Assembly: GCF_900083515.1 (NCBI RefSeq)
Contig: NZ_LT671858.1
Location: 1,140,001 to 1,172,000, forward strand
Reading direction: 5' to 3'
Source of the DNA: Cuniculiplasma divulgatum
Lineage (GTDB): Archaea; Thermoplasmatota; Thermoplasmata; Thermoplasmatales; Thermoplasmataceae
DNA: 32,000 nt
Shown: positions 1 through 28,261 of the stretch, one piece after another
Numbering within the stretch: the stretch's first letter is position 1
Layout: each line of letters opens with the position of its first letter
Made by a program: the position numbers and the translations under genes
The notes under the pieces: model-generated
Told to the model about the DNA's origin: nothing
The model's database searches: none
Seen by the model: only the letters and a program-made list of their open reading frames with translations

Positions 1-443
1 CTTATTTTTACTGTTTCACCGGTAACAACAAGATCTAATTTCCTTTCAATCTCCCTTGCCAAAAGTGTGCTGTATGAAAAGCTGTGAAAACCATTAAATC
101 TCTCCATCATTAAAAGTCCCCTTTCAAATGAAGATCCTGAAAATTTCATTACTCTCTTCTTAAAATCTGGAATCGCATCCAGTGAAAGAATTCTTTCACC
201 GTAGGTATAAATCTTGAAATCTACTGTTTCTACCATCCCTCCAGTACTCGGACCATAATTGAATGGAAATACATTTTCTCCTGTTACTCTGTGATGGTAT
301 ATTCCTCTTAGGGGATCGTAAATTCTTAAATTCTGAATTTCCTTTAAGTGGGATTCTTCTACCATCTCAGAATCATCTCTAATAAGGTAATATATTCCTT
401 CCCTTTCAAAAAAACCAGTTACATTTTCTGTGTCCGGAATCAT
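1..443 (-). CDS. NuoD/HycE-like large subunit of a group-4-hydrogenase-related (Ehr-type) membrane complex. Only the N-terminal ~147 aa are present; the gene runs off the left edge.
   Basis: Not in the ORF track because it is partial. Manual reverse translation from ATG 443..441 gives MIPDTENVTGFFEREGIYYLIRDD...YGPSTGGMVETVDFKIYTYGERILSLDAIPDF...MMERFNGFHSFSYSTLLAREIE. The layout resembles the N-terminal third of NuoD/HycE-type subunits. The start forms an ATGA overlap with the stop of the upstream 451-aa gene. Confidence 0.6.
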   Translation of the reverse strand, partial: MIPDTENVTGFFEREGIYYLIRDDSEMVEESHLKEIQNLRIYDPLRGIYHHRVTGENVFPFNYGPSTGGMVETVDFKIYTYGERILSLDAIPDFKKRVMKFSGSSFERGLLMMERFNGFHSFSYSTLLAREIERKLDLVVTGETVKI

Positions 444-1795
444 AAGAAACCTCCCAAATATACAAAAATTATGGAAAAAGCAAAGAGTACAGACAATCCT
501 GCAACGTACTTTTGAGTTCTTTCCAACTGGATTACTTCCTGCCCATCTGCATTGCCATCAAAAATCATTACTGAAACTTTCTGTATAAGTGATATAGAAA
601 TGATAAACAGACATATCACAATAATGATTACAGCAGCAATGGTTCCATTGTTGATCAACTGGTAAATGATCAAAAATTCTCCTAAAAAAGTAGTAAATGG
701 TGGTGCACCAGTAACTATGAGCGAGGATGCCAGCAAGGACATTGAAGTTGATGGCATCCTGTTCCTCAATCCTCTAATTTCATCAATCTTTTTTGTACCA
801 AAACCATTCAGAATATTCCCAGAGGAAAAGAATGCACCAGATTTACCAAATGCATGGGTGAGAATGATGAAGAGAGCTCCCACAAGGGCAAGACCACCTG
901 TGATCAGGCCAAGGGTTATGAGGGCCATATTCTCCATTGTTGAATAGGCAAACATTCTCTTTATATTTCTCTGTGAGGGCATTATAAGGGCAACGAAAAC
1001 AAGAGTTGCGAGGATGAATATAAGAAAGATTTCTTCAAGGCGTGGCGTGTATGTGGCAAGAAAGAATCTGTATAATGCATATGCTGCAACAGGCAGGAGA
1101 ATTCCTGAAAACATAGCACTGATCTCAGATGGGGCTTCTCCATGTGCATCAGGAAGCCATGTGTGCATTGGGAATATTCCAATCTTTGTTCCAAATCCAA
1201 CCAGAGCAGTAGCACCTGCAATTGTGAGAATAAAGGAAGGAGAGTGTCCGGTTTCTATAATGGCAACAGAGTTCAGCGTGTGATAATTTAGATATATGAG
1301 TATCACTGAAATTAATGCGAGTGTAAGGCCAGTAGATACAATCAAAACATATCTCCATGCTGCCTCTATCTCAGTTTTCTGCCTTTCTATTATTAGCAGT
1401 AAGGCGCTTGATGCCGTTGTCGCCTCTATTCCAATCCACATCAATCCAAAATCGTTTATGACCAGAGTGAAAAGCATTGTGAAAACAAACAAATGCATCA
1501 ATGAATAGTGCAGCTTCAGATTTCTTGACTCTTTTATTTTACTGTGATAGGTCGACGCAAAGAATATAGATAGGGTATATACAAGCGATACTGAAATAAC
1601 AAGAATCCTGTTCACAGAATTTATGTTAAAATGTGAATATACCCCCATTGGAATTGATAGCACTACAAATGAAACAATGACTTCTATGACACTTCCTATC
1701 TTTCCAATCAACTGGGAAAGATTACTAAAGTATGAAAAGGATAGAACTACCGGTATAATCAGCAAAATATAGATGAGTAAAGTATCCAAGTTCAT
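440..1795 (-). CDS. Antiporter-like proton-conducting membrane subunit (HyfF/HyfB/NuoN family)
   Basis: 451-aa polytopic ORF carrying the family motif WLPDAHGEAPSEISAMFSGILL. ATGA overlaps on both sides place it in an operon. Confidence 0.8.
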   Translation of the reverse strand: MNLDTLLIYILLIIPVVLSFSYFSNLSQLIGKIGSVIEVIVSFVVLSIPMGVYSHFNINSVNRILVISVSLVYTLSIFFASTYHSKIKESRNLKLHYSLMHLFVFTMLFTLVINDFGLMWIGIEATTASSALLLIIERQKTEIEAAWRYVLIVSTGLTLALISVILIYLNYHTLNSVAIIETGHSPSFILTIAGATALVGFGTKIGIFPMHTWLPDAHGEAPSEISAMFSGILLPVAAYALYRFFLATYTPRLEEIFLIFILATLVFVALIMPSQRNIKRMFAYSTMENMALITLGLITGGLALVGALFIILTHAFGKSGAFFSSGNILNGFGTKKIDEIRGLRNRMPSTSMSLLASSLIVTGAPPFTTFLGEFLIIYQLINNGTIAAVIIIVICLFIISISLIQKVSVMIFDGNADGQEVIQLERTQKYVAGLSVLFAFSIIFVYLGGFL

Positions 1796-2415
1796 CCTAT
1801 CAACTCCTCCATCTTTTCAGAAGTGTGATCCCCTGTCAGTAATACGGCTGCAACAATAACCAGAGCTAAAACATCCAGAAGTACACTTATCTCAACAATA
1901 AGTGGCAAGGGGAATATGCCAAGACTCAACAGAATCATTGCATTCTCCTCTTCAATATATCCGGTGAACTGTGTTATCTTGTTCTTTCTTGTTCCTATAA
2001 GCAGAAGTCCCTGTATAGCTATTACAAAACCAATTGCTGTAATGGGACTTGGGGCAAACTGAAATATTGTGAGTCTATAAATTATCAGGGTTGCAATTAG
2101 AACAATGATGCTTACTATGATTATTGAGGGAACTGTTGTGGACTTTTCTCTTATTAATTCCCTCCTTACAGGGAACTTTTTTATTAATATATATGCTGTA
2201 AGAATTCCCCTTATGAAAATTATGAGGAATGCTAGAAGTATCAAATCATAATTTACTGTGTATAGACCACTGATAAAGGCATATATGGCAAGAAGTGTAG
2301 TCTGTATAACTATTACCTGAATCTTTGTTATCACATAGCTACCTATTTGTGCCCAAATTGCCACGAAAAGCATCAATGTCGCTATAAAATCATAGACCTC
2401 ATCCAGAGGGATCAT
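1792..2415 (-). CDS. HyfE-like small membrane subunit of a hydrogenase-4 / Ehr-type complex
   Basis: 207-aa ORF that is entirely hydrophobic, with about 6 TM helices. It sits between the HycD-like and HyfF-like genes, as in hyf-type operons, and overlaps both neighbours by 4 nt. Confidence 0.55.
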   Translation of the reverse strand: MIPLDEVYDFIATLMLFVAIWAQIGSYVITKIQVIVIQTTLLAIYAFISGLYTVNYDLILLAFLIIFIRGILTAYILIKKFPVRRELIREKSTTVPSIIIVSIIVLIATLIIYRLTIFQFAPSPITAIGFVIAIQGLLLIGTRKNKITQFTGYIEEENAMILLSLGIFPLPLIVEISVLLDVLALVIVAAVLLTGDHTSEKMEELIG

Positions 2416-3362
2416 ATTATTGCACCTCCAAGTTTGAATAATACCAGTGCCAGAATTGCGAGAGTGAATGAAATGGCGAGGAAATCAGCTATCTTGAATA
2501 ATCTAACTTTGGCTAGAATTTGTTCAATAAATATGATGATGAGAATCAAAACAATCCATTTTCCTAGCATTATAATTATATCGATTAAAGAACCCGTTAT
2601 CCCGGTAAACATGAACCATGGAAAGATGAATATATTCAGTAAAACTGACCCAAGTAAGAATTGCTTTATCCAGGCTGCATATTTAAGAAAGAAGAGATTC
2701 CTTCCACCGTATTCATAGGTTCTTCCCTCATCAATCATTCCCATTTCTGAAAGTCCTGAACTTTCCACTGGCAGCTTGCCTGTTTCAAATATGAATATCA
2801 TGAAAAATGCTATACTTGAAAGTATATGTGTAAGGGATAAGTACAGTGAAGCGTTTGATGAAACTAATGAGGCTGTTGTGTATGGATTATTTGTTCCACT
2901 TTCTATTGCCACTGAGAATAGTACCAGTATAAGGGTTGGTTCTGCAAGAGCTGAAAATGATGCTGATCTTGAGGCACCCATTGCTGAAAGGTTACTCCTT
3001 GAATCAATGGCACCAAGGATGAGGAATACAGATGCCAGTGAAAATAACATGGCCCCTCCAAGGAAATCTACCATTGGAGCAAATAATGTTGGTATTGGTA
3101 TTATAACAGGAATTACAAATGAAATTGAGAACAAAACACCAAATACCAGCATTGGTACCCAGCGGTAAAGAAGATTTGTATCATATGTTGAAGTTTTCTC
3201 TTTTTTAAGATACTTTGCCAGATCATAGTATGGCTGAAAAATACTCGGCCCACGTCTGAATTCGGTTTTTGCCTTGAGGTTTTCGTAAATACCTGCCACA
3301 AGCGGAGCTAAAAGTAAAACTCCAAATATCTGAATTATGGTTTCTCCAAGCTGAACGTCCAT
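2412..3362 (-). CDS. HycD/NuoH-like membrane subunit (formate hydrogenlyase subunit 4 family)
   Basis: 316-aa polytopic ORF. The motif RRGPSIFQPYYDLAKYLKKE matches the NuoH/HycD signature (GP..Q...D..K...KE). First gene of the operon. Confidence 0.8.
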   Translation of the reverse strand: MDVQLGETIIQIFGVLLLAPLVAGIYENLKAKTEFRRGPSIFQPYYDLAKYLKKEKTSTYDTNLLYRWVPMLVFGVLFSISFVIPVIIPIPTLFAPMVDFLGGAMLFSLASVFLILGAIDSRSNLSAMGASRSASFSALAEPTLILVLFSVAIESGTNNPYTTASLVSSNASLYLSLTHILSSIAFFMIFIFETGKLPVESSGLSEMGMIDEGRTYEYGGRNLFFLKYAAWIKQFLLGSVLLNIFIFPWFMFTGITGSLIDIIIMLGKWIVLILIIIFIEQILAKVRLFKIADFLAISFTLAILALVLFKLGGAII

Positions 3363-17271: not shown

Positions 17272-17424
17272 TTATCGGATATTTAAAAACTTGTAATAAA
17301 AGTTTTGAATTTTCTTGACAGTTTAATAATATGTATACTGTATGAATCTTTTTCATCTAAATTGATTGGGAATGCTTTTCGTAGAAAAATTTTATAACAC
17401 AATTTGGAATATACTTCAGTAAAA

Positions 17425-17658
17425 ATGGAGAAGAAGAACTATTTAGAGGGAAAGAAAGGCGTATCTTCCTATATTAATTACAGTAATGCCTTACTTGCCA
17501 TAAGTTTCATATTTTTGATAATCGGTGTACTATTCTATCTCTCGTGGTCAATTCTATATAATACATGGTCAGACCCGGGACTCTATTCTTTTTGTCTGCC
17601 TATGGCAATATTCGGTATACTTGGAATAGCTTTCGTAAAATCTGGATCTTTTAACTAA
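17425..17658 (+). CDS. Small two-TM membrane protein, hypothetical
   Basis: The ORF track gives 17404..17658 with a TTG start. ATG 17425 lies about 30 nt downstream of an AT-rich TATA-like element (aaaattttataa). There are two clear hydrophobic helices. The 3' end overlaps the convergent ATPase gene by 8 nt. Confidence 0.45.
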   Translation: MEKKNYLEGKKGVSSYINYSNALLAISFIFLIIGVLFYLSWSILYNTWSDPGLYSFCLPMAIFGILGIAFVKSGSFN

Positions 17659-19546
17659 AATTTTCAATCTCCCAGTCTGAGGCTATAATTTTTATCTTAG
17701 TCATTTCATCCTGAGAGAATAGAATTGTTTCTGAGAATGGACTATTTTTTCCACCTGAAAGGGACATATGTAGATTTTTTAAACCATAATCTGATAGATT
17801 AATACCAAATTTCTGAAGATTTGAAATTAGTTTATTCCTAAATATGAATATATTGAGTGAATTATTTAGAATCTTTTTTCCATTTTCTGTGGTGAAATCT
17901 GACGAATCCTGAGATACAATGAGAACAGAGGTAAGAAAGTGCCTTGAAACTTTTATCATCTCTACTATTTGTCTTTCACATTCCCTGTTTCTGAAAAATC
18001 TGTGACCCTCTTCAATAAGAATAATTGTTGGAACATTTCCAGAACGCTTCATGAATAATTCTGCATACAAGAGATGGTCAAGCAGATCATCATCACTGCA
18101 TTTTCTTATTTCCATTTCGATATTTTCGCTTCTAGCTGATTCACCAGTGATATTCTCTCTCCAGAGTCTTTCATCGTATTCACCCAGAACATCAAGAACC
18201 AGAATTCTGGAAACATAACCAAGCACAATCATTCTTGTAAGTAGAATCTTCGAAAAGAAACTTTTTCCAGATCCTGTTTCGCCCATAACCAGAATATTGT
18301 GACTGCTCATAGGATATGGATCAAAAAATACAGGATTACCTGTAAGGTCTTCATTTCCAATAATTATCCCACTTCCTCTCGATTCAAACAGAATTGGAAA
18401 AAAAGAAACCAATTTAGATCTGGGTTGAGGGTATTCTATAAGTATTCGGTTCAGGTTGAACCAGTTAAAAGCAATGTTTCTTTGTTTTGGTATTACCAGC
18501 TCTATTCCCCATAATCTGGCATGATTTTGAAGTTGGTCTATAATTCTGGCAAGTTGGTAGAATTTATCAGATGAAACAGTTAATAGTAATTCCACATTGT
18601 AACAGTATTTATCGACATCCTTTCTGAACTCGGTTGCTGCGTCCACCTTATTTTTCAGAGTGTTTCCTATATGCCTTCCCTTTTCTGACAGTAATCTTTT
18701 GCGGGTTAGTATTGATGTAACTCTTCTTTTGAAGTGTGGATTTTCCTTTGAAATTTTTCGAAATCTAACAAAGGTATCAACTGCCAGATTTGAAGCACTA
18801 ATAAATCGCGATATTTGAAATAATGAACCATTGCTTATTTGCGTTACCAAAAGTGTTATGGATTTCTGATTTCCCATAGAATGCATTCTATATCCATTTC
18901 TGTATCCCTTGATCTGAGACAACCTTTGCAATATCCTCTTTCTTTCTTCCCCATCAACAATGGTTGCCATTATTCCATGTTGTTCAAGATTTTCTATTAG
19001 GTTTAAGTGTGAATCATTTTCCTGAGAAACCAGTTCCATAGCTATATAAGACGTATTTAAAAAAGACTTCGCTCCAGCACCAATAACATTGTCAAGAGAT
19101 TTTGTAATAGGTCCTCGATTATCCAGATTTCCATGATTCTCTTCAGATATGGATAACATTATGAATTTCTGATCAAGATACTCACTGATGCCGTTTATTA
19201 GGGATATTTGACTTTTAACCTTTTCCGAATTTCCATTCCATGAAAAATTTGCATCAAGTTTCAATATTAGGAATCTTTCCGTTGAAAACGGCTTCGTCGA
19301 ACTGGAGTATCTAATTTTTATGAGGTAGTATGAAATTGAGAAGATTGCAGCTACTGAAATCAATACAATCATTATGAGTGGGTTTTGGTAACCATGAATA
19401 ATGTATAGCAGGGCTAAAATAGAAAGAATTAAGACTACCACAGAGATTAATTTTTGATTATCAGCACTCCTGTAATCAAAGATATTAGATAATGGTTTAA
19501 TGGGGTTTGCGATTTCACTATCCATCATAACCCTCATCTTTATCAT
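17651..19546 (-). CDS. Membrane-anchored FtsK/HerA/VirB4-class P-loop ATPase (VirB3-VirB4-like / CedB-like)
   Basis: 631-aa ORF. It has two N-terminal TM helices (aa ~33-76), Walker A GETGSGKS (aa 422-429, nt 18283..18260), Walker B PTIILIEEGH (aa ~505-514), and a downstream SRHFLTSVLIVSQDSSDF motif (the R/K...[ST]Q..D pattern of VirB4/HerA). Confidence 0.75.
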   Translation of the reverse strand: MIKMRVMMDSEIANPIKPLSNIFDYRSADNQKLISVVVLILSILALLYIIHGYQNPLIMIVLISVAAIFSISYYLIKIRYSSSTKPFSTERFLILKLDANFSWNGNSEKVKSQISLINGISEYLDQKFIMLSISEENHGNLDNRGPITKSLDNVIGAGAKSFLNTSYIAMELVSQENDSHLNLIENLEQHGIMATIVDGEERKRILQRLSQIKGYRNGYRMHSMGNQKSITLLVTQISNGSLFQISRFISASNLAVDTFVRFRKISKENPHFKRRVTSILTRKRLLSEKGRHIGNTLKNKVDAATEFRKDVDKYCYNVELLLTVSSDKFYQLARIIDQLQNHARLWGIELVIPKQRNIAFNWFNLNRILIEYPQPRSKLVSFFPILFESRGSGIIIGNEDLTGNPVFFDPYPMSSHNILVMGETGSGKSFFSKILLTRMIVLGYVSRILVLDVLGEYDERLWRENITGESARSENIEMEIRKCSDDDLLDHLLYAELFMKRSGNVPTIILIEEGHRFFRNRECERQIVEMIKVSRHFLTSVLIVSQDSSDFTTENGKKILNNSLNIFIFRNKLISNLQKFGINLSDYGLKNLHMSLSGGKNSPFSETILFSQDEMTKIKIIASDWEIENFS

Positions 19547-20483
19547 TGATTCTGAAAAACTGGGGCTGATTTAATTCAGGATTTTGGGATTTCAAATTTC
19601 TTACCCTCTCTTCGTGCTTTTGCTTTTCCAATCTTATCCCTTTATCAAACGCAGTACTCAATAAACCATATCCAGATAGTAGAAAGAAGTTTGAGAATAA
19701 TCCTGAATTGGATTGGTTTAACCTGTAAGATGTATATATAAAAGAATATGGCAAAATGGAAAGGAGAGAAAGGAAACCCAGCTGGATGAAGAAATATCCT
19801 GAAAAATTGAAGTAGAAGTATATTAACAGTAAAATTATAAGTGGTGATACAAGCAACTGCACATACAGGAGCCATAGTTTGACCACGAACTTTCTAAATG
19901 CATCTATTCCGGTTAATAGGGAAAGAAATGGGAGAAATATGTACAGAGTTATAAGAATGGCAACCCTGAGCATGAGAAAGCTCAGCATTGACATTGCGGC
20001 AGTAAGATAAATACCATCGAATACTATCTCAAGGATAGAGCTTTTGGATGAAAAGAAAGAAGATACATTTCCAAGCATGTATGAAATGGAAAAGTAATAA
20101 GACCATTTTGTTGATTGAGATAAAATGAGTTTTGACACGTCCATGGTTCCAATTGAAAAGCTATTAATGAGTATCATTGAAATAACAAAGAAAATGGCAC
20201 TTTCCGAGAATTTAAGTAGAATTTCTTGAGATTTCCCATTTTTAGAAGATATCAGATAAAATGAAGAATAGATGGCAGAAAATAACAGTAAATAAGGAAT
20301 CATAACAAATAGGTCAGAACGAAAAGTCTGTATGTTAAGATTGAACGCCTTCCAGAATTCAAAATCATAAGTGCTCTCTAATCCGTCATGAATTGCAATC
20401 TTCCATAGTGATGAAGAAATTAGTAATTCTAAGGATAAAATAAGTGTCCCTAAGGGAGACAGGATGGAAGAGATGCTTAGCAA
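19518..20483 (-). CDS. Polytopic membrane protein (about 7-9 TM) with a hydrophilic charged C-tail; VirB6/CedA-like by architecture
   Basis: 321-aa ORF. The TTG start is 2 nt after the upstream stop, and the 3' end overlaps the ATPase start. It is hydrophobic throughout, ending in ...LEKQKHEERVRNLKSQNPELNQPQFFRINDKDEGYDG. I see no recognisable enzymatic motif. Confidence 0.6.
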   Translation of the reverse strand: MLSISSILSPLGTLILSLELLISSSLWKIAIHDGLESTYDFEFWKAFNLNIQTFRSDLFVMIPYLLLFSAIYSSFYLISSKNGKSQEILLKFSESAIFFVISMILINSFSIGTMDVSKLILSQSTKWSYYFSISYMLGNVSSFFSSKSSILEIVFDGIYLTAAMSMLSFLMLRVAILITLYIFLPFLSLLTGIDAFRKFVVKLWLLYVQLLVSPLIILLLIYFYFNFSGYFFIQLGFLSLLSILPYSFIYTSYRLNQSNSGLFSNFFLLSGYGLLSTAFDKGIRLEKQKHEERVRNLKSQNPELNQPQFFRINDKDEGYDG

Positions 20484-20485
20484 TT

Positions 20486-20764
20486 TTACCCAACTGCTAT
20501 ATACTTGAAAATTGCAAATAGGGTTCCACTTATCGCCAGAACATATATGAGGGTGCCAATTGCAGCATTTTTTGCTCTACCATATGACTGATACTTTCTT
20601 TGTTCATCTGCACTGAAGAAGGAAAACGCGATAGGAATCCAGAGTATAGCTATTATAAAAGCAGATATTCCAACAATAATGTCAGTTGAACGGGATATTA
20701 ATCCTGTAAGGCTCGATGAAGATGTATAGTTTCTCATAGTTTCTAAAAAGTTGCTTAAATACAC
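20486..20764 (-). CDS. Small helical-hairpin membrane protein (VirB2/CedA1-like candidate pilin)
   Basis: 92-aa ORF with a GTG start (alternative ATG at 20737). It has a hydrophilic Ser-rich leader, TM1 IIVGISAFIIAILWIPIAFSFF, a basic loop SADEQRKYQSYGRAKN, and TM2 AAIGTLIYVLAISGTLFAIFKYIAVG. Confidence 0.5.
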   Translation of the reverse strand: MYLSNFLETMRNYTSSSSLTGLISRSTDIIVGISAFIIAILWIPIAFSFFSADEQRKYQSYGRAKNAAIGTLIYVLAISGTLFAIFKYIAVG

Positions 20765-20810
20765 AACTGGATAAAAAAGTAATATTAAAAATTGTTTTCA
20801 TGAATGCTTA

Positions 20811-25175: not shown

Positions 25176-25279
25176 CCCGACTTAGCTCAGCTGGTAGAGC
25201 GGCGGACTGTAGAGGGAAAGTACGGCACGTAAATACCGCCGTAATCCGCAGGTCTCTGGTTCAAATCCGGAAGTCGGGA
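25176..25279 (+). tRNA. tRNA-Tyr (anticodon GTA) with a 31-nt intron after position 37; CCA is not encoded
   Basis: Hand-folded cloverleaf. Acceptor stem: CCCGACT/AGTCGGG. D arm: GCTC-AGCTGGTA-GAGC. Anticodon stem: GCGGA/TCCGC, with loop CTGTAG[intron 25213..25243]A. T arm: TCTGG-TTCAAAT-CCGGA. The C1-G72 pair and A73 match the archaeal tRNA-Tyr identity set. Confidence 0.9.
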
Positions 25280-25806
25280 TTTAGAATTTGATGTGTGTCT
25301 CGAACTATGTTCCAACAAAATGGAATGATGATAATTTTCGATGCCGGGCTCTTATCCACATCATTACACCTTTGAATCTAGAAAGACCCCGATGGTTTTT
25401 TAATGTTGTATTATTGATAAATTCTGAACTGACGTTCTCTCGCATAGGTGTGCCAATAGAACTTTCATTGTGTGGGTGTACATTATACATCCATAATAAA
25501 AGAGTCACCAGCAAACTTACATACTCTTAATCTCCTGTAATACGATCTTACTTAATGATACCATCTTAAATTTCCATACTAGAGTATTTCTTTGGTGCTT
25601 AGATTGACTAGATCCGGCATACTTGGTATCCAAATCTGCCTTTAAAGTAGAATAATCTTTGAACGTAGGAACTTATTTCTTAATAGACACCAAACTATTT
25701 CTGATAAATTTCCCGCTCTGATTTAAACAATTGAAGGAGAGTTGATAAAAATAGGTTCTGAATGCTAATAGGTAAACTTAACCAAAAAATCCTAGGGTTG
25801 TGAGGC

Positions 25807-26343
25807 TTAATTCTTAACATTTAGCTTATCACCAAATGCTTCTTTTAATATATTTTCGTAACTAAGAAATATGTCCTCATTAAGCTTTCCCCTTCCCTTG
25901 AAATTATTGTGAACAAGATGAAACTTAATTTTTTTTCCATCTGAATCTAGTAAAAGGTGGGGGAGAGATAATGGAGTTCCGTTTGTAAGTTCAACTTTAT
26001 CAACACTTGAATACGGTATCACCGTGAACTTTGGAGGTACTTCTTTTATTTTTGAATCCAGATTCTCCTCTATTTCTTTTCCTCTCCTTAAATTTTCATC
26101 TATTAACCAAGATACCTCTTCCTGTGTTACTTTATAATTGGAAACCGTACCCCCTAACGGGATCATTCTATAAGGATTACTTATCTGAGTTCGAATCAAA
26201 TCTGATCGCTGCTCTTTTCCTTCCATTGTGAGAAATTGGTATATTTCCTCATTTGTAAATATAAGATGATAGGTTGTATTCCATACGGTTGCATTATCAA
26301 TTGCTCCAATAACCTTGATCATATATTGATAATTTACATCCAT
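25807..26343 (-). CDS. Hypothetical protein (178 aa), orphan within the tRNA-adjacent island
   Basis: This is the only long ORF in the region. I recognise no motifs. The beta-rich pattern (HLIFTNEEIYQF ... VDKVELTNG ... KKIKFHLV) is vaguely like a bacterial PH-domain fold. Confidence 0.45.
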   Translation of the reverse strand: MDVNYQYMIKVIGAIDNATVWNTTYHLIFTNEEIYQFLTMEGKEQRSDLIRTQISNPYRMIPLGGTVSNYKVTQEEVSWLIDENLRRGKEIEENLDSKIKEVPPKFTVIPYSSVDKVELTNGTPLSLPHLLLDSDGKKIKFHLVHNNFKGRGKLNEDIFLSYENILKEAFGDKLNVKN

Positions 26344-26773
26344 TATAATACTTTTTGATTTTCATTAGCAATGTATGACATTTTCAAGTTCTATGTTTCA
26401 GGCTTAACTCTATTTATTGAAGTCTGAATTTTAACAAATAATTCACACCCACAAATCTTCATATCGTTTAGCGCGCGGTCATATTCATTACTCTCCTCCT
26501 TTTTAAGATCTTTGTTTATGCTATTATAGACGGTATACTAATGGATTCACAGCTCCAGCTATAACAAATGCTAGCTTTCCATCTGTTCCTGTTGATATCT
26601 ATGCATTTATATGGAAACTTGAAGATTGTGTGCCCCTAAGCACGGATGATTGACTAGCAAATGTTAGATATGTGTTGTAAACAGAAGGGTATTCCTTTTC
26701 CTAGCTTGATGACATTATTCAAGTGCAGGCAAATCTTTAATCTCATGGAGCTTAAATTTCTCTTCAGCTGGCA

Positions 26774-27277
26774 TTAACACCTAACTTTCTGTTTGCTTTT
26801 CCCGTATTTCAGGAGCTCATTCCCCAGTTCTGTAATCTTGCTGTCTTGATCCAAGAGATTGAATTCCATAAGCTTTTCTTTCATGTCAGGAAAATCAGAT
26901 ATCGCTTCCATATGGCATAATGATCCAATAACCTCTGGTCCTATAAGTCTGAAATAATTTTCCGGTGTTACCTCTTTCAGGAGAATGTCACCATTCCTGG
27001 TGATCTGATAATAAGTATGATGTTTATGCACCTCTGCACTTTTCTTTAGTTTTGCTGAGGTACGTTTAATTGAAGTATTTTCATATATATCCAGAAGTTT
27101 CATCGAATGGAGTCGTTTCATATAATCTGTAACTCTCATCAGAGGGATTTCGGTGTACCTTGAAGTGTTCTTGGCATAATCCACCTTCGCCAAATGCATA
27201 TGGCGAAGCACCCTCAGCATCTCTGGAGACTTTAGTACCTCTAACAGCACTTCATCCGTAAAATATTCGTTTGCCAT
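26774..27277 (-). CDS. Winged-helix DNA-binding protein (167 aa), hypothetical
   Basis: The pattern LRVLRHMH...IPLMRVTDYMKRLHSMKLLD...HTYYQITRNGDILL shows an HTH plus a wing (YY.iT..G). A TATA-like element (ttattatag) sits about 30 nt upstream of the ATG. Confidence 0.55.
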   Translation of the reverse strand: MANEYFTDEVLLEVLKSPEMLRVLRHMHLAKVDYAKNTSRYTEIPLMRVTDYMKRLHSMKLLDIYENTSIKRTSAKLKKSAEVHKHHTYYQITRNGDILLKEVTPENYFRLIGPEVIGSLCHMEAISDFPDMKEKLMEFNLLDQDSKITELGNELLKYGKSKQKVRC

Positions 27278-27504
27278 ATTTTCACTGTTCTTTCACTATA
27301 TGCTTACTATAATAACTTCATTAGAGAAATACTTCCCTGGTTTCATGAAAACATTGTTTTCTGGAATTGTAATTTATGATTCATATTTTTTTCCATATTT
27401 CCACAGAGTAAGACTCAAGCGGACTGATTTAAATCTGCGCCCTCTTTAAGGTTAAATAAATATACCTGTTCTATATAAACTATAACAATGAGAGATGAAC
27501 TAAA

Positions 27505-27675
27505 ATGTCAAAAATGATAAAATGTCCAAAATGCGAAAAAATTTTCAAGAAGCCAGTATTTGGAAGGAAAAGGGTCGGTGTGGGCATAGGTTTTACTGCA
27601 TTAGGGGATTACATTAAGTGCAAAGAATGTAATTATGAAGGTATCCCAAGTGAATTTGAAAACAAGCAGCAATGA
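27505..27675 (+). CDS. Small zinc-ribbon protein (56 aa), below the ORF-track size cut-off
   Basis: Manual translation gives MSKMIKCPKCEKIFKKPVFGRKRVGVGIGFTALGDYIKCKECNYEGIPSEFENKQQ*. It carries a CPKC...CKEC pair. A TATA-like element (ctatataaac) lies about 27 nt upstream. Confidence 0.45.
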   Translation: MSKMIKCPKCEKIFKKPVFGRKRVGVGIGFTALGDYIKCKECNYEGIPSEFENKQQ

Positions 27676-27988
27676 AAGTGTATATGACTGGTACTAATTC
27701 ATCATAACAACCATTCCATAATATCTCATTTATAGCAGCTTCTGTAATTGGCTTATTTGGGTCAATTTCCCGAGATCTATTATCTTCTAAAGTTTGTTAA
27801 CACTTTTGTTTACTATGCTTTTCTGTGTTCCTATAATTATGGAAAGAAATTTATTAATGATGAAACAAGGTGTAATTATGATAATTAATGTTTTTTAAAT
27901 GGACAAACATTTAGACATTTTAAGGTTCTCTAACCAGGAAATCACACCTTCTCTAAAAGTTCAAGAAATATATCCATAATTTAAACTT

Positions 27989-28261
27989 TTAAATTTGCAC
28001 TACTTCACTTCCATCTACCATTAGTCTTACTGGTGAGAGTAGTCTGATAAATATTTCCACCTTATGCTTTTCGGCATTTCCAATTTCAAGATCAAACTTT
28101 CTAGAAGGCACCAAATTGGGTACATCAATAACTCTTTCACCATCAACCTCTATTCTAATATATTTAAGAAAGGGGTTTGCGTTTACACTTATAACATGTT
28201 TTTCATGATCTCCTATTTCGAATCTTGCTTTTGACATTTTTGCTCTAAATTTATTACCCAT
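27989..28261 (-). CDS. Small protein (90 aa from ATG 28261) built from two tandem ~35-aa repeats, hypothetical
   Basis: The ORF-track frame spans 27989..28390. The first 43 codons look like AT-rich read-through, and a TATA-like element (ccataaatac) precedes ATG 28261. The repeats are FEIGDHEKHVISV...IRIEVDGERV and LEIGNAEKHKVEI...VRLMVDGSEV. Confidence 0.45.
   Translation of the reverse strand: MGNKFRAKMSKARFEIGDHEKHVISVNANPFLKYIRIEVDGERVIDVPNLVPSRKFDLEIGNAEKHKVEIFIRLLSPVRLMVDGSEVVQI

Follow-up and report, generated by a model that had tools for sequence, protein, structure and literature searches.

A chromosomally fixed gene module of Cuniculiplasma divulgatum, very probably a domesticated relative of type IV secretion systems

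The subject of this work is a group of three genes in the genome of the archaeon Cuniculiplasma divulgatum. They lie in a stretch of 32,000 nt (contig NZ_LT671858.1, positions 1,140,001–1,172,000), which we will call the window. All three are found in the minus strand. The first one (20486–20764, GTG start) codes for a protein of 92 amino acids, a candidate pilin. The second (19518–20483, TTG start) codes for a polytopic membrane protein of 321 amino acids. The third (17651–19546, ATG start) codes for an ATPase of 631 amino acids in its longest open reading frame (ORF). Together they recall the core of a type IV secretion system (T4SS) and we will refer to them as the module. A first-pass annotation, made from the sequence alone, had described three tightly packed genes, and the ORF list reproduces their coordinates exactly: the first two are separated by 2 nt (20484–20485) and the second overlaps the third by 29 nt. 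The overlap shrinks to 8 nt if the ATPase starts at Met8 (position 19525), its likely start, which agrees with the 624-amino-acid homologues and with the database versions. A small ORF with two transmembrane (TM) helices converges on the module from the opposite strand (17425–17658, +; 77 amino acids from its ATG or 84 from a TTG at 17404) and overlaps the stop of the ATPase gene by 8 nt.

The genes on both sides belong to core metabolism, as had been stated: on one flank a 4HBT thioesterase and RpiA, on the other DHNA/MptD (the archaeal dihydroneopterin aldolase), NTPase_1 and Trm1. The gap of 46 nt after the thioesterase gene contains a TATA-like box read from the sequence, TTTTTAATATT (20781–20791, −), some 22 nt before the GTG of the pilin gene. 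The module might be transcribed from it, although A/T runs are common in a genome with 37% GC. The module genes are conserved across many contigs and metagenome-assembled genomes (MAGs), with a ratio of nonsynonymous to synonymous substitution rates (dN/dS) of 0.04–0.11 when compared with a relative 77–89% identical; they are therefore real genes and not chance ORFs. From these comparisons the module appears to be real, functional and restricted to its lineage.

We will start with the ATPase, in which all the motifs noticed previously are present in the translation. The Walker A sequence GETGSGKS (18260–18283, −) is invariant in the family alignments. The same is true for E513 and H515 in the Walker B region IILIEEGH (18002–18025, −) and for R535, Q546 and D550. 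Two N-terminal TM helices (residues 31–77; 19316–19456, −) are apparent from translation and hydropathy, in a VirB3-like position. Two Pfam domains are above threshold: AAA_10 with 41.2 bits (cut-off 27.5) and DUF87, the central domain of HerA, with 41.5 bits (cut-off 23.2). NCBIfam gives weak matches with TraC, CD1110-VirB4, anti-phage HerA (E 1.6e-8) and CedB. The best sequence matches in the PDB are a defence-type NTPase (E 3.5e-6) and the VirB4 of Thermoanaerobacter. Scans with the single sequence are thus ambiguous, since the NCBIfam and PDB matches mainly cover the P-loop region, to which those of HerA type are restricted. The matches found in plasmids with tblastn are weak and also in the P-loop region; they correspond to DUF87 proteins of Sulfolobus and haloarchaeal plasmids and to one CD1110 VirB4. 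The family is narrow: only eight proteins are found in a search with the single sequence, and the identity with any bacterial protein is 14–19%.

A profile of 12 Thermoplasmata sequences reaches, outside its own family, only proteins of VirB4, TraC and Bacteroidetes-TraG type. They carry P-loop_TraG, DUF3875, CagE_TrbE_VirB or TraC_F_IV domains, and some of them are named VirB4 or conjugative TraG in their source. No HerA name or annotation is present among all the matches of this search. The highest scores correspond to the VirB4 of a Saccharibacteria cluster (219 bits), the VirB4 of a Pontibacillus plasmid cluster (201 bits) and the VirB4 of a metagenome contig whose genes are organised in the same way (L027, 194 bits); a pNOB8 protein gives 122 bits. 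The same result is obtained from structure. We have used an AlphaFold2 model based on an alignment of 31 sequences, with a mean predicted local distance difference test score (pLDDT) of 67 and values of 85–94 in the C-terminal domain. When it is compared with the PDB by Foldseek, the top 17 matches are all VirB4. The first thirteen (E 1.3e-21 to 5.8e-15) are R388 TrwK/VirB4, and their 640–747 aligned columns cover both the N- and C-terminal domains of the ATPase. A shorter R388 VirB4 chain and the Thermoanaerobacter VirB4 occupy ranks 14–17. EccC follows at rank 18, and HerA is only found at rank 21 (7.6e-8). Furthermore, about 420 residues including the two TM helices precede the Walker A motif, a HAS-barrel is not recognised, and NurA, Sir2 or other genes for HerA partners were not found either in the window or in the syntenic loci. 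Pfam, the profile search and Foldseek agree, and the modelled fold places the ATPase in the VirB4 class, as proposed in the first-pass annotation, rather than with the HerA-NurA ATPases of repair or defence. A crude neighbour-joining tree of the ATPases separates a clade of syntenic Thermoplasmatales from a clade of deeper Thermoplasmata. Its distances to the bacterial groups are saturated at 0.8–0.93, so that it does not settle the relation with them and no conclusion on origin was drawn.

The N-terminal part of the ATPase is variable in its organization. In the Cuniculiplasma lineage there is a fused VirB4-like protein of 624–631 amino acids (17651–19546). The first 240 residues or so, with the two TM helices and about 170 soluble residues, are coded by a separate gene of 230–269 amino acids in two groups, the Thermoplasmataceae-like MAGs and the deeper Thermoplasmata. 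The Thermoplasmataceae-like MAGs have a TM-bearing gene of 241–246 amino acids and an ATPase gene of 427–472 (L008: 9185–11284, L010: 2224–4380, L011: 3138–5309); the split ATPase of deeper Thermoplasmata is longer than that. The difference between lineages is a case of gene fusion or fission. An equivalent split, a TraC-like ORF of 210–274 amino acids followed by VirB4, is found in the Pontibacillus cluster, in the Saccharibacteria cluster and in the L027 contig. The separate N-terminal protein of a deeper locus (L018) matches positions 37–275 of the model for the VirB4 of a mycoplasma integrative conjugative element (ICE) (E 8.9e-9). No similarity of this segment with PrgI, VirB3 or TraL was detected. 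Its profile also gave nothing with the PrgI, TraL-like and TraC-like proteins of the bacterial clusters, in a comparison whose underlying alignment is poor (12–19% identity). As for the fused VirB3 which had been proposed, two TM helices do precede the VirB4 domains, but a direct match with PrgI or VirB3 was not found; the helices may be called VirB3-like from their position and topology only.

The 92-amino-acid protein is, as described, a hairpin with a basic loop: two hydrophobic helices, at residues 30–48 and 69–87 approximately, are joined by the loop FFSADEQRKYQSYGRAKNAA, which is rich in K/R and conserved (FFS-D-x3-K/R...AK). In the alignment of the family this loop has the motif WFS-D-x3-K/R-x3-AK-x-R/K-x-x-A. 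The protein has no signal peptide. In this respect it is similar to CedA1, whereas the pilins of deeper Thermoplasmata have one at their N-terminus, like TedC and bacterial VirB2. All of the Thermoplasmata orthologues (11/11) match the Pfam family PF18895, T4SS_pilin, with a best E of 3.7e-6. NCBIfam gives a weak match with the Mbov_0395 pilin-like conjugal transfer protein, and with the profile of the pilins a protein of the same name (Mbov_0395 family) is found in the Pontibacillus T4SS. The dN/dS of the 92-amino-acid protein is 0.039. The VirB2-like character that had been claimed is therefore supported by the set of orthologues, but the copy in the window is borderline when taken alone. 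We consider this protein as a candidate VirB2-type pilin of the T4SS_pilin family.

The 321-amino-acid protein has 6 predicted TM helices, 7 in its orthologues, and a charged C-terminal tail, in agreement with its first description. We have found no match for it in Pfam, in NCBIfam or among PDB sequences. The family was collected by an exhaustive HMMER search and has 57 representatives among 1.84 billion proteins. They share the invariant motif R173...P185...W204...P214, which is found inside the core that can be aligned with bacterial proteins. Two long bacterial-type proteins are among its relatives, P0106 (E 1.2e-4) and P0110 (E 6.5e-4), neither of which has any match in plasmids. P0106 is part of a cluster with the order 836-amino-acid protein, P0106, 368-amino-acid protein, PrgI, TraC-like, VirB4. 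It is 30% identical (E 2e-50) to a 7-TM protein of 637 amino acids in the T4SS cluster of Saccharibacteria, which also adjoins PrgI and VirB4. We have compared by hhalign a profile of Thermoplasmata sequences only (A3) with these proteins. The probabilities are 95.3% for P0106 (E 2e-8), 95.6% for P0110 (E 1e-8) and 82.8% for the Saccharibacteria protein, and reach 97.9% (E 4.9e-13, 173 columns) for a bacterial profile of four sequences (A10). Controls with unrelated polytopic proteins and with shuffled or reversed sequences do not exceed 0.6%.

The link to classical VirB6 has to be drawn through the bacterial proteins. Those of Saccharibacteria and Pontibacillus match almost the whole Pfam model of TrbL/VirB6 below threshold, with E 1e-3 and 2e-4. 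The joint bacterial profile is weakly related to TrwI: with hmmsearch the alignment takes in almost all of TrwI at E 1.2, and with hhalign it has about 73 columns at 20.6%. It has been reported that hidden Markov models of VirB6 recover VirB6 homologues in Patescibacteria (PMC12102498). When 49 members of the family were scanned with Pfam and NCBIfam, the only match was a weak one, CD3337/EF1877, for P0110; with a 553-amino-acid protein of another locus (L031) the profile gave nothing. The protein had been called VirB6-like. The profile comparisons with their controls show that it is a homologue of the proteins found in VirB6 position in genuine T4SS clusters of Patescibacteria and monoderm bacteria, but its membership in the curated VirB6/TrbL family is indirect. 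Its dN/dS is 0.064.

Two other loci have members or possible relatives of this family. A metagenome contig (k141_263695, L028) has a pilin-like ORF (1982–2440) and a family member of 678 amino acids with a long Gly-rich tail (P0095, 8001–10037). The same cluster also holds large unannotated proteins, a Pilin_N protein and a PKD protein of 2026 amino acids. An ATPase is not recognisable with the Thermoplasmata profile, so that we consider this cluster a different arrangement of the same membrane parts. In a MAG of Nitrososphaerales (L020, 7287–14390) there are two genes for ATPases of VirB4/DUF87 type, beside ORFs with two or three TM helices and an 8-TM protein of 573 amino acids. The relationship of this 8-TM protein with the Thermoplasmata family is weak by hhalign (14% with A3, 40% with a wider profile, A9, which includes two bacterial sequences). 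Integrated conjugative elements have been described in Thaumarchaeota, and this cluster is probably one of that kind.

The small convergent ORF is a fourth conserved gene which had been overlooked in the first-pass annotation. An overlap of 4–8 nt with the ATPase stop is found in every syntenic Thermoplasmatales locus. Its sequence contains the motif FYLSWSILYNTWSDPGLYS, with the pattern FY-x-SWSILY-x-TW-x-D-x-GLY, and its dN/dS is 0.031, the lowest value of the four. It is absent from the loci of deeper Thermoplasmata and has no similarity either with the pilin or with any Pfam family. Whether it is part of the module is uncertain: it could be an accessory subunit peculiar to this lineage, or a gene which is simply fixed beside the others.

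We come now to the chromosomal setting. In all the Thermoplasmatales loci recovered the module is found in the same site, between the 4HBT thioesterase and the series DHNA, NTPase_1, TRM, UbiA, PcrB, PurS and PurL. These flanks are unchanged even when the identity of the ATPase has fallen to about 30%. With respect to the 77% identical relative, synonymous divergence (dS) is 1.08–1.21 in the module genes and 0.66–1.38 in the flanking genes. The dN/dS of the ATPase is 0.113, and the range of 0.03–0.11 which results when the convergent ORF is included indicates purifying selection. The ATPase evolves faster than its housekeeping neighbours: it is 77% identical in one relative (L006) where they are 81–98%, and 55% in another (L007) where they are 74–94%. 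The polytopic protein is fast like the ATPase, while the pilin and the convergent ORF are slower. None of the lineages sampled has a disrupted copy of any of the four ORFs.

A lower GC content had been noticed in the module from a few lines of sequence. The difference is real, but smaller than those hand counts: the module genes have a GC content of 0.34–0.36, compared with 0.40–0.42 for ileS, purL and PcrB. Third codon positions (GC3) are normal, with 0.325 versus 0.336±0.039 in the other genes, so that the cause is amino acid composition. A recent horizontal acquisition, which the AT-richness might suggest, is rejected on the same grounds.

Genes of mobile elements had not been seen at the locus by eye. 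This is borne out by our search: integrase, relaxase, coupling protein and replication genes were not found in the window or in the syntenic Thermoplasmatales loci. There are no flanking att-like repeats around the module, and no relatives were detected in our scan of viral contigs. The nearest tRNA, the only one in the window according to Rfam, is located 4.4 kb away, beyond six conserved genes (25176–25279, +). It has 104 nt, contains an intron and scores 56.6 bits in Rfam; ARAGORN reported none. Directly 3' of this tRNA we have noticed a region of about 2.7 kb (25281–28032) with a GC content of 0.29–0.33 and ORFs at 25807–26343 (−) and 26774–27277 (−). Since a counterpart is lacking in L006 and L013, two relatives with 86% identity, we regard the region as an islet specific to the strain, next to the tRNA; we have seen neither an att-like repeat nor an integrase in it. 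Another feature of the window is a fluoride riboswitch (RF01734, 3379–3440, −; 42.6 bits versus a gathering score of 34 bits). It is found immediately upstream of a hyf/mrp-like operon of polytopic membrane proteins (440–3362, −), which suggests that the expression of this operon may be regulated by fluoride.

Deeper Thermoplasmata have the same core in five loci (L018, L019, L021, L023 and L024), beside other housekeeping genes such as HMG-CoA reductase and PmbA/TldD. Four of these loci have a gene for a giant surface protein of 817–1563 amino acids directly upstream of the pilin (L019: 19–4437, L021: 88–4191, L024: 55–4746, L018: 39–2492); in the exception, L023, the contig ends just upstream of the pilin gene. 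In L019 and L024 the PKD and SprB repeats of this surface protein are confirmed. A TM helix is found at the C-terminus of the protein, together with a short tail on the cytoplasmic side which resembles a winged-helix domain ('...GEDRASLL.LAEEHGI...'). The role of the protein may be that of an adhesin or of a sensor coupled to the module, and its PKD repeats upstream of the pilin would fit a function in cell contact.

The nearest outgroup ATPases (P0015, P0018 and P0021) are found in a different environment, in conjugative elements of monoderm type. These elements carry relaxase, type IV coupling protein (T4CP), integrases, single-stranded DNA-binding protein, primase, topoisomerase, sortase and cell-wall hydrolases. 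P0015 has both a relaxase and a coupling protein in its neighbourhood, P0021 a coupling protein. T4SS genes are present in them as well, namely T4SS_pilin or Maff2, TrbL_2 and PrgI, and the pilin comes first, followed by the polytopic protein, PrgI and VirB4. The module shares the order pilin, polytopic protein, VirB3-like or VirB4 N-terminal domain when present, and VirB4 with the T4SS clusters of Pontibacillus, Saccharibacteria and Firmicutes. Since the outgroup elements carry all those mobile genes and the module has none, it looks like a subset of a conjugation machine, stripped of the functions of a mobile element. The identical site, purifying selection, normal GC3 and a dS similar to that of the flanking genes all speak for the domesticated chromosomal apparatus which had been suggested, and the synteny across related genomes indicates that it is chromosomally fixed and vertically inherited.

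The cluster has been mentioned before. A single sentence in the work of Golyshina et al. in 2016 lists a four-gene cluster of C. divulgatum (CSP5_1185-1189 / CPM_1190-93) as 'type IV secretion components'. It consists of arCOG05340, arCOG04034, arCOG05369 and a membrane protein found only in Thermoplasmatales (PMC5155288). It is almost certainly the present locus, because the four-gene composition matches and our ATPase falls in the same cluster of at least 90% identity as the C. divulgatum protein SIM66527.1 and the 'G-plasma' protein EQB68949.1. In GenBank SIM66527.1 is named 'type IV secretory pathway, VirB4 component'. The RefSeq entry in the same cluster, WP_171970451.1, is named 'helicase HerA domain-containing protein / DUF87', a label which is misleading; the sequence is also present in metagenome contigs. 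The published account gives arCOG labels only. It has no identification of a pilin or a VirB6-like protein, and does not deal with synteny, selection, domestication or a link with Ced and Ted (PMC5155288), the DNA import systems discussed below. In our literature search we found no paper which ties the cluster to Ced/Ted, names its pilin or VirB6-like protein or discusses its domestication. The first-pass annotation had considered an apparatus of this kind as a new branch. The listing of the cluster and the naming of its ATPase are thus older; what is new here, as far as we have found, is the view of it as the pilin, channel and VirB4 of a domesticated apparatus which can be compared with Ced and Ted.

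What could be the function of this module? We consider it very probable that it is a domesticated membrane machine derived from a T4SS. The arguments for a minimal domesticated T4SS are the constant site, purifying selection, the normal GC3, the absence of mobile genes nearby and the presence of outgroup ATPases in conjugative elements. In T4SS in general, VirB4 hexamers dock on a membrane platform of VirB3 and VirB6, extract pilin for the growth of the pilus and energise the channel. Cuniculiplasma cells have no wall and a single membrane. By analogy, their VirB4 hexamer would be anchored there to the VirB6-like channel by means of its TM segment. With the use of ATP it would extract the pilin from the membrane, to be polymerised into a lipid-associated pilus of conjugative type or a short mating conduit, and it would energise the passage of a substrate through the channel. 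If Ced and Ted are taken as a guide, the likeliest substrate would be chromosomal DNA, imported or exported between cells of the same species. A VirD4-family ATPase, reported elsewhere in the genome of C. divulgatum outside the window, could participate in this process (PMC5155288). No S-layer is present in C. divulgatum, and pili have occasionally been seen on its cells (PMC5155288). DNA is favoured as cargo because Ced and Ted are the only characterised precedents and because of this VirD4-like ATPase; even so, by itself the DNA cargo falls a little short of an even chance in our judgement. For the complete explanation, a fixed minimal apparatus of T4SS type with chromosomal DNA exchanged between conspecific cells as its likeliest substrate, we find the case evenly balanced.

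Several observations weigh against this interpretation. None of the loci has DNA-processing neighbours, nor T4CP, relaxase, HerA/NurA, ParA or Rad50 genes in or beside the module. The pilin of the window scores 21.4 bits (E 2.7e-4) with PF18895, below the cut-off of 26.6 bits, and the profile of its family does not match by sequence any solved conjugative pilin in the PDB. Solved VirB6 structures are not matched by the profile of the polytopic family. The A3 profile has no direct match either with TrwI (0.1%) or with a Firmicutes TrbL_2 protein (0.6%), and the AlphaFold2 model of the 321-amino-acid protein, from an alignment of six sequences, is unusable (pLDDT 43.7). The pilin and the N-terminus of the polytopic protein show no resemblance of the CedA/CedA1 type (hhalign probability at most 1%). 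Finally, the polytopic protein has its closest detectable relatives among the T4SS components of Patescibacteria; relaxases are absent from most of these systems, whose role is thought to be in epibiotic growth and not in conjugation (PMC12102498).

Some of these facts lead to the alternative which best survives: the same apparatus derived from a T4SS, but without DNA as cargo. It would form a contact pilus or conduit for adhesion, cohesion of biofilms or exchange of proteins and metabolites. The partner cells could include the epibionts of Cuniculiplasma, Micrarchaeota or archaeal Richmond Mine acidophilic nanoorganisms (ARMAN), and the nearest analogy would be the relaxase-less T4SS of Patescibacteria. 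In 2017 Golyshina and coworkers reportedly described Cuniculiplasma as the host of an ARMAN-type epibiont. Besides the lack of T4CP, relaxase and DNA-processing genes at the locus and the Patescibacteria relatives of the polytopic protein, this possibility is favoured by the PKD-repeat adhesin-like protein found beside the pilin in the modules of deeper Thermoplasmata. The epibiotic growth of Patescibacteria requires both VirB6 and PrgI (PMC12102498), and electron cryo-microscopy of acid-mine-drainage plasmas shows pili which attach one cell to another (PMC3750248). However, the domesticated T4SS-like systems of Archaea which have been characterised experimentally move DNA without exception (PMC9905601), and the VirD4-family ATPase is present in the same genome (PMC5155288). 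The pili seen so far in these organisms have been ascribed to type IV pilus genes (PMC5155288, PMC3750248). We consider a contact function as possible, though distinctly tentative.

A T4SS dedicated to the secretion of protein effectors or toxins, directed against competitors or hosts, is improbable. It is true that bacterial T4SS without relaxase, and sometimes without T4CP, translocate proteins (PMC12857230), and that there are no DNA-processing genes at the locus. But no conserved effector, immunity or chaperone genes are found beside the module, whose neighbours are housekeeping genes, and the apparatus is limited to three core parts. To our knowledge an effector-secretion T4SS has no precedent in Archaea.

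The two remaining alternatives are essentially refuted. A conjugative plasmid or ICE which had integrated and is now decaying, with relaxase, T4CP, integrase and function lost, might be suggested by the outgroup ATPases in conjugative elements and by the faster evolution of the ATPase. But the four ORFs are intact, under purifying selection and with the same dS as their flanks; the position is identical across family-level divergence, there are no repeats, GC3 is normal, and the homologous core of deeper Thermoplasmata also lies beside housekeeping genes. Still less can be said for a HerA-type repair or defence ATPase which merely happens to lie beside unrelated membrane proteins: the DUF87 domain, the anti-phage HerA and defence-type NTPase matches and the RefSeq name point that way, but near-full-length VirB4 folds match 13 orders of magnitude better than HerA, which lies below all VirB4 structures (7.6e-8 versus 1e-21), the profile reaches only proteins of VirB4, TraC and TraG type, the long N-terminal part has TM helices and no recognised HAS-barrel, the conserved partner proteins are of T4SS type, and neither a nuclease neighbour nor other HerA partners were found.

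If DNA exchange is indeed the function, the module could represent a third case of conjugation machinery independently domesticated by Archaea, and the first one beyond Thermoproteota, used for the exchange of the species' own chromosomal DNA. We present this as a tentative proposal, rather less likely than otherwise. If it is true, the domestication would be old enough for a single chromosomal site across Thermoplasmatales and for the presence of the module in deeper Thermoplasmata, and the take-over of conjugation machinery would have been repeated in a different phylum. It could also provide a missing mechanism for the extensive homologous recombination which Eppley and coworkers are said to have found in 2007 in acid-mine-drainage populations of Thermoplasmatales. 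We would then have a concrete candidate set of genes behind gene flow in these archaea, or behind their physical links with ARMAN-type epibionts. For structural work it would be the simplest T4SS that can be imagined, a model of three or four proteins: one membrane, no cell wall, and a pilin, a channel and a VirB3/4 motor in three genes. C. divulgatum can be cultivated, so that its pili are open to purification and imaging and the exchange between cells can be tested in this species.

We may now compare the module with known systems. Ced in Sulfolobales and Ted in Thermoproteales are domesticated VirB2/VirB6/VirB4 trios which import DNA (PMC9905601). They are so far the only known conjugation-derived machines co-opted for DNA exchange between cells, both in hyperthermophilic Thermoproteota, and according to the authors no other report of such a domestication exists (PMC9905601). 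The module is similar to Ced in its parts, a two-helix pilin, a VirB6-like protein with about 7 TM helices and a VirB4-like ATPase. Like Ced it is chromosomal and has no relaxase, T4CP or integrase. A cleavable signal peptide is lacking in its pilin, in agreement with what has been reported for CedA1 (PMC9905601), and it has an additional small membrane protein which is of a similar kind to CedA2. On the other hand, the genes of the module are all contiguous and its ATPase has a fused TM segment. The N-terminus of CedA resembles CedA1, a similarity between pilin and channel which is not present here. The hosts are also different: wall-less Thermoplasmatota in one case, Sulfolobales, Desulfurococcales and their relatives (Thermoproteota) in the other. 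The first-pass annotation had placed the module close to Ced, but its membership does not hold. The CedB model of NCBIfam (NF041017) gives 29.3 bits (E 3.4e-7) with the ATPase, far from its cut-off of 700 bits and only in the P-loop region, at residues 388–466, and is outscored by the TraC and CD1110-VirB4 models. Neither membrane protein has any Ced-named match in NCBIfam, and no similarity to CedA or CedA1 was found in the NCBIfam and PDB searches.

With Ted the module shares its nature of a domesticated chromosomal VirB2/VirB6/VirB4 trio, a likeness of architecture. The deeper Thermoplasmata have a pilin with a signal peptide at its N-terminus, like TedC (PMC9905601). The pilin of Cuniculiplasma differs in this respect, and the profile of the module pilins does not match the solved conjugative pilins. 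Ted loci often have HerA, ParA/MinD and Rad50 as neighbours (PMC9905601), which are absent from the loci of the module.

The closest detectable homologues are found in the T4SS of monoderm bacteria (mating-pair formation type FATA, MPF-FATA) and of Patescibacteria, as it is clear from the bit scores of the ATPase profile and from the match of the polytopic protein with their VirB6-position proteins. They also have in common the gene order and the optional split of the N-terminal part of VirB4, and PF18895, the family of the module pilin, has been used for finding the VirB2-like pilins of Patescibacteria (PMC12102498). The module differs from them by the lack of relaxase, T4CP, cell-wall hydrolase, sortase, VirB8-like and PrgI-family genes; it is found off mobile elements, in Archaea, restricted to a lineage and highly divergent. 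The features that would define a conjugative element, relaxase, T4CP and the hallmarks of integration, thus appear to be missing. Those of a T4SS core appear to be present: VirB4 strongly, the pilin at the level of its family and the VirB6-position protein by comparison of profiles. In summary, as judged from sequence, the detectable affinities of the module point to T4SS of the monoderm (MPF-FATA-like) and Patescibacteria type rather than to Ced, and the module appears to be analogous to Ced and Ted but not an orthologue of Ced.

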